Assembly: GCF_003334305.1 (NCBI RefSeq)
Contig: NZ_QOWS01000070.1
DNA from: Escherichia coli
GTDB lineage: Bacteria; Pseudomonadota; Gammaproteobacteria; Enterobacterales; Enterobacteriaceae
Length of the DNA: 758 bases
Direction: 5' to 3' (one strand)
Positions 1 to 758 of the stretch are shown here, piece by piece. The notes beneath the pieces are model-generated. The model was not told where the DNA came from, did not search any database, and saw only the letters and a program-made list of their open reading frames with translations. The stretch's first letter is position 1; the number at the start of each line of letters is the position of its first letter. A program made the position numbers and the translations under genes.

Positions 1-758
1 ATCCCGACGGGTGTGATACGGACGGACGACGAGCGGACCCACCACTACCACTACGACAGCCAGCACCGCCTGGTGTTCCACACGCGGATACAGCATGGCG
101 AGCCACTGGTCGAGAGCCGCTACCTCTACGACCCGCTGGGACGGCGAATGGCGAAACGGGTATGGCGGCGGGAGCGTGACCTGACGGGGTGGATGTCGCT
201 GTCGCGTAAACCGGAGGAGACATGGTACGGCTGGGACGGCGACAGGCTGACGACGGTACAGACCGACACCACGCGTATCCAGACGGTATACCAGCCGGGG
301 AGCTTCACGCCGCTCATCCGGGTCGAGACAGAGAACGGCGAGCGGGAGAAAGCGCAGCGCCGCAGCCTGGCGGAGAAGTTACAGCAGGAAGGGAGCGAAG
401 ACGGTCACGGTGTGGTGTTCCCGGCTGAACTGGTGGGGCTGCTGGACAGGCTGGAGGGGGAAATCCGGGCAAACTGCGTGAGCAGTGAAAGCCGCCAGTG
501 GCTTGCGCAGTGCGGGCTGACGGTGGAGCGGCTGGCGGCACAGATAGAGCCGGTTTATTTGCCTGAGCGAAAAATACATCTTTATCACTGTGACCACCGG
601 GGCCTGCCGCTGGCGCTTATCAGTGAAGACGGCAATACGGCGTGGAGCGCGGAATATGATGAATGGGGCAACCAGCTTAATGAGGAGAACCCGCATCACC
701 TGCACCAGCCGTACCGGCTGCCGGGGCAGCAGTATGATAAGGAGTCGGGGCTGTACTA
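1..758 (+). CDS. Rhs-family polymorphic toxin protein, conserved core (YD-repeat) region; internal fragment, partial at both ends (RhsA-D-like; paralogue cannot be assigned from this window)
   Basis: Seen in sequence: frame +1 is open across all 252 complete codons with no stop. The translation contains repeated YD-type motifs ([29 protein letters not shown]) and the characteristic end-of-core block [31 protein letters not shown] followed by [18 protein letters not shown]. From memory this closely matches E. coli RhsA/B/C core sequence just upstream of the core/toxin junction; no database search was possible. Codon usage is strongly GC3-biased (ctg, ccg, cgg, ggc), consistent with a real reading frame. 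The ORF track missed it only because the fragment has no in-window start codon. Confidence 0.93.
46..75 (+). repeat. YD-repeat unit (protein-level) within Rhs core: [10 protein letters not shown]
   Basis: Translated frame +1; matches the Y-x-YD-x-x-x-R-L pattern of Rhs/YD repeats. Confidence 0.6.
121..159 (+). repeat. YD-repeat unit (protein-level): [13 protein letters not shown]
   Basis: Translated frame +1; a near-canonical YD repeat (Y-x-YD-x-x-G-R) as found in Rhs, teneurin and TcC-type proteins. Confidence 0.7.
223..255 (+). repeat. Degenerate YD-like repeat unit (protein-level): [11 protein letters not shown]
   Basis: Translated frame +1; a W-D-G-D-R-L variant of the YD/GR-L repeat pattern, which is commonly degenerate within Rhs cores. 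Confidence 0.5.
583..672 (+). other. Conserved Rhs end-of-core motif block: [30 protein letters not shown]
   Basis: Translated frame +1; the Y-H-x-D-H-x-G-x-P ... W ... YD-x-W-G pattern is the hallmark conserved block near the C-terminal end of Rhs/YD-repeat shells. Confidence 0.8.
706..758 (+). repeat. Final YD-repeat of the core (truncated by window end): [18 protein letters not shown]
   Basis: Translated frame +1; the R-x-P-G-Q-x-YD-x-E-x-G-L-x-Y pattern, which in Rhs proteins immediately precedes the RYYDP...DPxGL core/toxin junction. The window ends inside this unit. Confidence 0.75.

Follow-up and report, generated by a model that had tools for sequence, protein, structure and literature searches.

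Multiple copies of an Escherichia coli Rhs 3' core segment, candidate exchange between their loci, and a recurrent stand-alone contig

Identity of the sequence and its place in the Rhs core

The window, by which is meant the whole stretch of DNA analysed (758 nt), belongs to an Rhs polymorphic-toxin gene of E. coli, in which it makes up the 3' end of the conserved core; the gene is of a lineage common to the T6SS-linked (hcp-vgrG-rhs) and the rhsD and rhsE loci. ORF analysis found frame +1 open throughout and stops in all remaining frames, the other two forward frames being rich in them. The 252-aa translation matches NCBIfam profile NF041261 (RHS_core) over profile positions 966-1217 of 1261 (E=4.8e-161) at 538 bits, on a scale where the whole-protein cutoff of 2000 bits is beyond the reach of any 252-aa fragment. 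It also scores 23.3 bits against TIGR01643 (cutoff 15.8), and its matches to Pfam RHS_repeat are marginal only. In megablast searches the window DNA is 100% identical, over its full length, to genes in at least 30 complete E. coli genomes, and the full-length genes that contain it are annotated 'RHS element core protein'. The features are collected in Table 1.

Table 1. Features of the 758-nt window and of its two ends
Feature	Position	Strand	Evidence or remark
Rhs core ORF fragment, both ends open, frame 1	1..758	+	ORF analysis, megablast, NF041261
YD-repeat unit, aa 7-31	19..93	+	TIGR01643 YD_repeat_2x, E=6.5e-5
Pfam 'RHS protein' PF03527, aa 192-228; opens the highly conserved block ending in DPxGL	574..684	+	i-Evalue 3.3e-17
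Left contig end	1..1	.	Preceding base (position 0) is a T/C SNP separating Rhs copies
Right contig end	758..758	.	Position 759, next to it, is a T/C SNP among Rhs copies
8-substitution patch	307..358	.	Sole in-window differences between the two O121 RM8352 paralogues
Lineage-specific divergent patch, local GC dip	530..576	.	Typical of the T6SS-linked core; unlike D/E and A/B/C types

In E. coli O103:H2 12009 the window encodes residues 971-1222 of an Rhs protein 1415 aa long. The PxxxxDPxGL motif lies beyond it, at aa 1235-1244 of the full-length 12009 gene, where it reads ITPDPIGL. Similarity between copies collapses just past this motif, and GC content falls from 0.63-0.64 in the core to 0.41 in the tip. 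The original prediction had described the window as core directly upstream of the variable tip, and the codons for DPIGL do start only 49 nt past its end. A ydcD-family gene, putatively of the immunity type, overlaps the stop codon of the 12009 T6SS-linked Rhs gene. On the 5' side of the Rhs gene, hcp-vgrG is found directly adjacent at the T6SS-linked locus and vgrG at the rhsE locus; at the rhsD loci inspected, neither hcp nor vgrG was found 5' of the Rhs gene. The dip in GC after nt 540 was considered as a mark of foreign DNA or of a breakpoint and rejected, the segment being variable and slightly AT-richer in every subfamily.

Copies of the segment in complete genomes

The window was matched by megablast in 3725 of 5426 complete E. 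coli genomes (69%), at 12712 places in all; per matched genome the median is 3 places and the highest number 7. The rhsA/B/C-type cores are largely missed by this search, so that the places counted are copies of one lineage. Carrier genomes typically hold two or three copies of 90-100% identity at dispersed loci.

In 12009 (NC_013353.1), where the copies were located by synteny with K-12, the window is present at 100% both in the hcp-vgrG-rhs gene of the T6SS cluster (record positions 266868-267625) and in the rhsD-locus gene downstream of ybbP (534633-535390), the two exact copies being direct repeats 268 kb apart. The vgrG-rhs pair at the rhsE locus of this genome carries it at 91.4% and the rhsC-locus gene at 79%. 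Assignment of the third megablast place in 12009 to the rhsC-locus copy was rejected, since the longest exact run there (25 nt) is too short to seed a match; the place is the rhsE-locus copy. The rhsD-locus copy of O121 RM8352 is 100% identical to the window and its T6SS-linked copy 98.9%. In K-12, rhsD and rhsE are 98.2% identical to each other over the window segment, with a 574-nt exact run. Copy number and identity are thus direct readings of the sequences, and they bear out the expectation of several copies at 90% identity or above: none of the genomes examined held the core as a single copy. The further claim that such copies are near-identical stands within one lineage and fails between lineages: cores of the rhsA/B/C type reach no more than 77-79% identity to the window, and their exact runs no more than 25 nt.

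The window as a free-standing contig

An exact look-up of the 252-aa product identified the window as an entire contig, k141_46291 of ENA assembly ERZ27277744, 758 bases in length. The exact partial product is held under four GenBank accessions, all on 758-base contigs. Contigs of 762-876 nt encode partial Rhs proteins that fall into one 90%-identity cluster with this product; they represent the same segment at 100% amino acid identity, and one other stand-alone contig begins at the same residue as the window. Contig sizes in this protein cluster are 731-876 nt and ~1550-1580 nt; the longer ones map elsewhere in the core. The original prediction had warned of an assembly hazard, and the hazard extends to the window itself, which recurs as a free-standing 758-base contig in at least 20 samples.

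A de Bruijn graph contig that is bounded by branch points is a maximal exact repeat, whatever the value of k. At the base that precedes the window (position 0), the two copies of 12009 and the rhsD-locus copy of strain 41 have T; C is present in the two copies of O121 RM8352, in rhsD and rhsE of K-12, in the vgrG-linked copy of 16-9255 and in the vgrG::rhs fusion of strain 41. At the base that follows it (position 759), the rhsD-locus copies of O121 and strain 41 have C, and all others compared have T. Around an identical 758 nt, the flanking pair (0/759) therefore takes four forms: T/T (12009, both copies), C/C (O121, rhsD locus), T/C (strain 41, rhsD locus) and C/T (16-9255, T6SS-linked copy). 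All four combinations of the two SNPs form a four-gamete pattern, which requires either exchange or recurrent mutation. Compared with each other, the T/T and C/C types match exactly over window positions 1-758 and no further. Because both neighbouring positions are copy-separating SNPs and the exact match of these two types coincides with the contig, the window is a unitig bounded either by a repeat or by variants. Unitigs of other lengths would result from the arrangements in O121, strain 41 and 16-9255.

Contig status and boundary SNPs are matters of direct observation; the branch points in the window's own sample would, on the reading preferred here, stem from paralogues within a genome. 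They could instead come from co-assembled strains or from a lineage outside the complete genomes, because no sign of a second flank type appeared in any complete genome whose top hit to either of the flank-type queries (the window with 30-nt flanks) reached 99%. That the two ends reflect allelic variation between E. coli strains co-occurring in a mixed sample is thus a credible reading, although not the one we favour. The record name is in MEGAHIT style and comes from an ENA assembly, and T/T and C/C are found in different lineages, the former O103-like and ETEC, the latter O121, which match exactly over the window. Against this, the accessions of the 252-aa product are labelled simply Escherichia coli and the 758-base contig recurs from sample to sample; moreover, every window carrier examined has at least one further copy at 91% or more, so that paralogues would fragment the region in any case. 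A mixed sample would change the cause of the two ends and leave the conclusions on copy number and recombination unaffected.

The hazard also shows in deposited records of other kinds. Three small 'plasmid' records that bear Rhs sequence (NZ_CP034740.1, pL65-4, 6767 bp; CP048292.1, 7010 bp; NZ_OY757120.1, 7307 bp) belong to a class of 6.8-7.3 kb 'plasmids' that consist of fragmented Rhs ORFs, with pieces of both core and tip, and are typed as non-mobilizable; replication genes are absent from the two records inspected for them, pL65-4 and pN18EC0432-5. A 'phage' record of 1900 bp (OR845200.1) holds Rhs core, and a 19-kb Klebsiella oxytoca 'plasmid' (NZ_CP069916.1) holds a K-12-like rhsD. The possibility that the small 'plasmids' are excised circles, as in Jackson's model, was rejected for pL65-4, which is colinear with chromosomal rhs loci at 96.5%, not permuted, and devoid of a replication gene; it is a stray, error-rich chromosomal contig. 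The small 'plasmid' and 'phage' records in general are probably stray chromosomal contigs or contamination. The rhs genes also differ between two assemblies of EDL933 (PMC7216683).

Arrangement of the copies on the chromosome

The expression 'rearrangement hotspot' is a historical name, derived from a laboratory-selected crossover between rhsA and rhsB. That unequal crossover was recA-dependent and was selected via duplication of glyS (Lin, Capage and Hill 1984, as recounted in PMC2935791), and the direct-repeat orientation of the two exact 12009 copies makes duplications between them mechanistically possible. A true natural hotspot, yielding large duplications, deletions or inversions between the loci, is nevertheless improbable. 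In the 20 genomes that have both junction types (described below), the two copies lie in the same order and the same relative orientation, and their spacing is 266-272 kb in 18 genomes and ~307-308 kb in the other two. An apparent 1.6-Mb displacement of junction B in EC20017429 was rejected as a rearrangement, being accounted for by a third copy at the rhsE locus. As of Jackson 2009, no natural chromosomal rearrangement mediated by rhs had been reported, and Rhs diversity was put down there to the displacement of tips by homologous recombination within the core (PMC2935791). The evidence from sequence comparison likewise supports gene conversion and tip exchange as the probable outcome of recombination between the copies, not gross chromosomal rearrangement. 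Of the original prediction of a rearrangement hotspot, the part that would survive is thus local exchange; gross rearrangement between the copies was not seen in the 20 genomes.

A chimeric gene at the rhsD locus

The T6SS-linked and rhsD-locus cores of 12009 are 85% identical overall and 65-80% identical in their first 2.1 kb, and they have in common an exact tract of 1619 bp (L001 19185-20803). The tract starts 816 nt upstream of the window and ends 45 nt beyond it, 5 nt before the DPIGL codons. At 85% identity, the chance probability of such a run is ~1e-114. Over its 5' 2.1 kb, in turn, the rhsD-locus gene has ~100% identity with the copy at the rhsE locus, including exact runs of 648 and 1096 nt; the switch of partner falls within a 124-nt interval (L001 19061-19184), after which the rhsE-locus copy is only 87-97% identical over the codons of the tract. 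The 12009 rhsD-locus gene is a chimera, its 5' part matching the rhsE-locus copy and its 3' part the T6SS-linked copy, and both the mosaic structure and the breakpoints are read directly from the alignments. Between the O121 RM8352 copies the exact runs are 1062 and 400 bp, the 400-nt run ending exactly at window position 758.

The minimal processing segment for homologous recombination in E. coli is roughly 25-30 bp, and the exact runs within single genomes (1619 bp in 12009, 1062 and 400 bp in O121, 574 bp in K-12) are far above this size. The tract that joins the two otherwise divergent 12009 cores would be an instance of the predicted use of the core as a homology arm. Strong purifying selection on a conserved protein segment, in place of recombination, could draw on the facts that the segment precedes the most conserved Rhs block (PF03527) and that all lineages are more alike there than in the 5' core, but it is exceedingly unlikely as the source of the identity: all 1619 nt agree, third codon positions included (GC3 0.78); the identity starts and stops abruptly against flanks of 65-80%; the rhsE-locus copy of the same genome departs from it over the same codons; and a switch of partner (D equal to E in the 5' part, D equal to G in the 3' part) is impossible through selection, so that the step-like profile and the partner switch effectively refute this explanation.

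Recombination between the cores being the preferred reading, its direction can also be addressed. The 530-576 patch is present, in its T6SS-linked form, in the rhsD-locus copies of 12009, O121 and strain 41, and the T6SS-type junction between 5' core and tract occurs at 99% or more in 293 genomes, against 33 for the rhsD-type junction. By this patch and these counts, the T6SS-linked copy is the probable donor and the copy at the rhsD locus the probable recipient, a polarity that is based on junction frequency and one diagnostic patch, not on phylogeny.

Annotation marks the chimeric gene of the rhsD locus as frameshifted and without its C-terminus both in 12009 (L008 16747-20521, NC_013353.1) and in strain 41 (L013 5129-8919); that of O121 RM8352 is intact and encodes 1396 aa (L011 5127-9317). 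Because of the frameshifts in 12009 and strain 41, the recipient of conversion may be a decaying gene in some lineages.

Probable tip exchange and the rhsE module

Past window position 772, the 12009 T6SS-linked gene and the K-12 rhsE locus are exactly identical for 892 nt. The run spans the end of the core, the entire tip and the start of ydcD, and beyond it the two loci remain colinear through copies of ISAs1/H-rpt. Because of this identity, one and the same tip module can be said to sit on different cores at different loci. Exchange of tips through the core, as the original prediction proposed, would explain why the tip and ydcD of the 12009 T6SS-linked locus are those of K-12 rhsE.

The rhsE locus itself varies among strains. 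In STEC strains it holds an intact vgrG-rhs pair (L021 17238-23621, NC_013353.1; L016 5156-11539, NZ_CP071711.1). In K-12, rhsE is present only as a 5'-truncated pseudogene (L006 2891-4939), a remnant that begins ~117 nt inside the 1619-bp tract. The K-12 rhsE module of tip, ydcD and ISAs1 is the module found at the 12009 T6SS-linked locus, and so occupies different loci in different strains.

A model for exchange among Rhs cores

Taken as a whole, the explanation that we consider very likely is that of a multi-copy Rhs 3' core that recombines between loci and, as a repeat, breaks assemblies. The dispersed copies have exact stretches in common, from hundreds of bp to over 1600 bp long, that reach the boundary between core and tip, and these would support homologous recombination of the RecA type and gene conversion. 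Exchange would homogenise the 3' core among the loci, and would re-pair delivery modules with C-terminal toxin tips. The same repeat would break de Bruijn graph assemblies, the window being a unitig with variant positions on both sides.

A more specific version of the model is put forward tentatively, as something we think somewhat unlikely. According to this version, the last ~1.6 kb of the core would be a cassette for exchange across subfamilies, passed one way from T6SS-linked Rhs genes to the orphan gene at the rhsD locus, in tracts that end within bases of DPxGL and with a turnover that differs between isolates of one clone. If it were correct, tips could be re-paired with other N-terminal delivery modules on epidemiological time scales. 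The K-12 rhsE remnant, similar in extent, would accord with a discrete unit of 3' core, tip, immunity gene and H-rpt.

The one candidate for such recent turnover, at the level of the clone, is O121:H19 16-9255, when compared with seven other O121 genomes. The T6SS-linked copy of this isolate (NZ_CP022407.1, L015 7031-7788) carries the rhsD-locus version of the 307-358 patch. RM8352, for which the sequence was compared, and six further O121 genomes, for which the state of the patch was taken from a 100% match to the O121 flank-type query, differ from 16-9255 at this patch. The rhsD-locus copy of 16-9255 (NZ_CP022407.1, L017) has several 1-nt indels and one 6-nt insertion. The patch in the T6SS-linked copy may be a very recent gene conversion or, given the indel errors in the other copy of this assembly, an artefact of long-read polishing between paralogues.

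Relation to known systems

K-12 rhsD and rhsE, of the RhsD-E subfamily, are 91.7% and 92.0% identical to the window, respectively, without indels. They differ from it by 61-63 substitutions, which include the dense lineage-specific patch at 530-576, and the exemplar genomes carry the window type in T6SS-linked and chimeric rhsD-locus genes, not in a K-12-type rhsD. The T6SS-linked copy of 12009 adjoins yafV, at ~5.3 min on the K-12 map, where RhsG was reportedly mapped. Its putative assignment to RhsG-H is by map position; the 65-80% identity of its 5' 2.1 kb to the D type fits a separate subfamily. Exchange between cores of different subfamilies was reportedly described by Wang, Zhao and Hill in 1998. 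Three such subfamilies of Rhs cores, ABCF, DE and GH, are distinguished (Wang, Zhao and Hill 1998, as given in PMC2935791).

The closest parallel for the proposed exchange is Salmonella Typhimurium LT2, in which the main rhs gene becomes joined to an orphan tip through recombination within a 522-bp, 95%-identical stretch of core just before DPxGL (Koskiniemi 2014, PMC3967940). There, too, the homology arm lies directly 5' of DPxGL and recombination swaps the tip that is expressed (PMC3967940). In Salmonella, however, the partners are adjacent, a main gene and a downstream orphan, and the event was observed experimentally, whereas the E. coli partners are full-length genes at least 268 kb apart, the exact tract is longer, and the event would be one reconstructed from sequence. 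By analogy, the putative mechanism matches that of LT2 as well as Jackson's displacement model (PMC2935791).

The rhsA-rhsB crossover of K-12 resembles the present case in the substrates of its recA-dependent recombination, which are dispersed direct repeats of Rhs core (as recounted in the review PMC2935791). It differs in the subfamily involved, that of rhsA and rhsB, which is 78-79% identical to the window and has exact runs of at most 16 nt in common with the D type, and in being a laboratory-selected duplication, whereas the variation around the window is natural. As an assembly product, the window is comparable to the unitigs of rRNA operons and IS elements: a short free-standing contig that recurs across assemblies and whose ends are graph branch points. 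Unlike these, its repeat is a family of protein-coding paralogues of graded identity, with the consequence that contig size varies by lineage.

Implications

The original prediction is borne out, each of its main claims being directly supported in one or more complete genomes. A multi-copy, recombining core is already well-known behaviour of Rhs elements, and no new principle is involved. What is added is chiefly that the window turns out to be the assembly artefact warned of, and that a probable conversion between loci can be traced to the base, with its end at the core/tip boundary. The locus would thereby furnish a clean, precisely bounded natural example of tip exchange by way of a homology arm, together with homogenisation of the core. 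In practical terms, the 758-base sequence has no unique place in a genome, two loci fitting equally well in strains of the 12009 type. As a result of this non-unique placement, short-read calls of variants, of gene presence and of toxin tips at Rhs loci are unreliable. Small Rhs contigs may also end up deposited as 'plasmids' or 'phages'.

State of the T6SS-linked locus in strain 41 and O121

The T6SS locus of strain 41 (NZ_CP076285.1, L014 9242-12122) has undergone a deletion of most of the Rhs core, by which vgrG is fused to the Rhs 3' end. The junction of the vgrG::rhs fusion lies ~29 nt upstream of the window start, and the product is annotated as a frameshifted VgrG; the fusion retains the entire window, at 98.2% identity. 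In the T6SS cluster of O121 RM8352 (NZ_CP028110.1, L012 8678-11073), tssG is split by an IS3-family element and tssK is frameshifted. Because of these two lesions, the linked Rhs toxin of the RM8352 lineage may be undeliverable.
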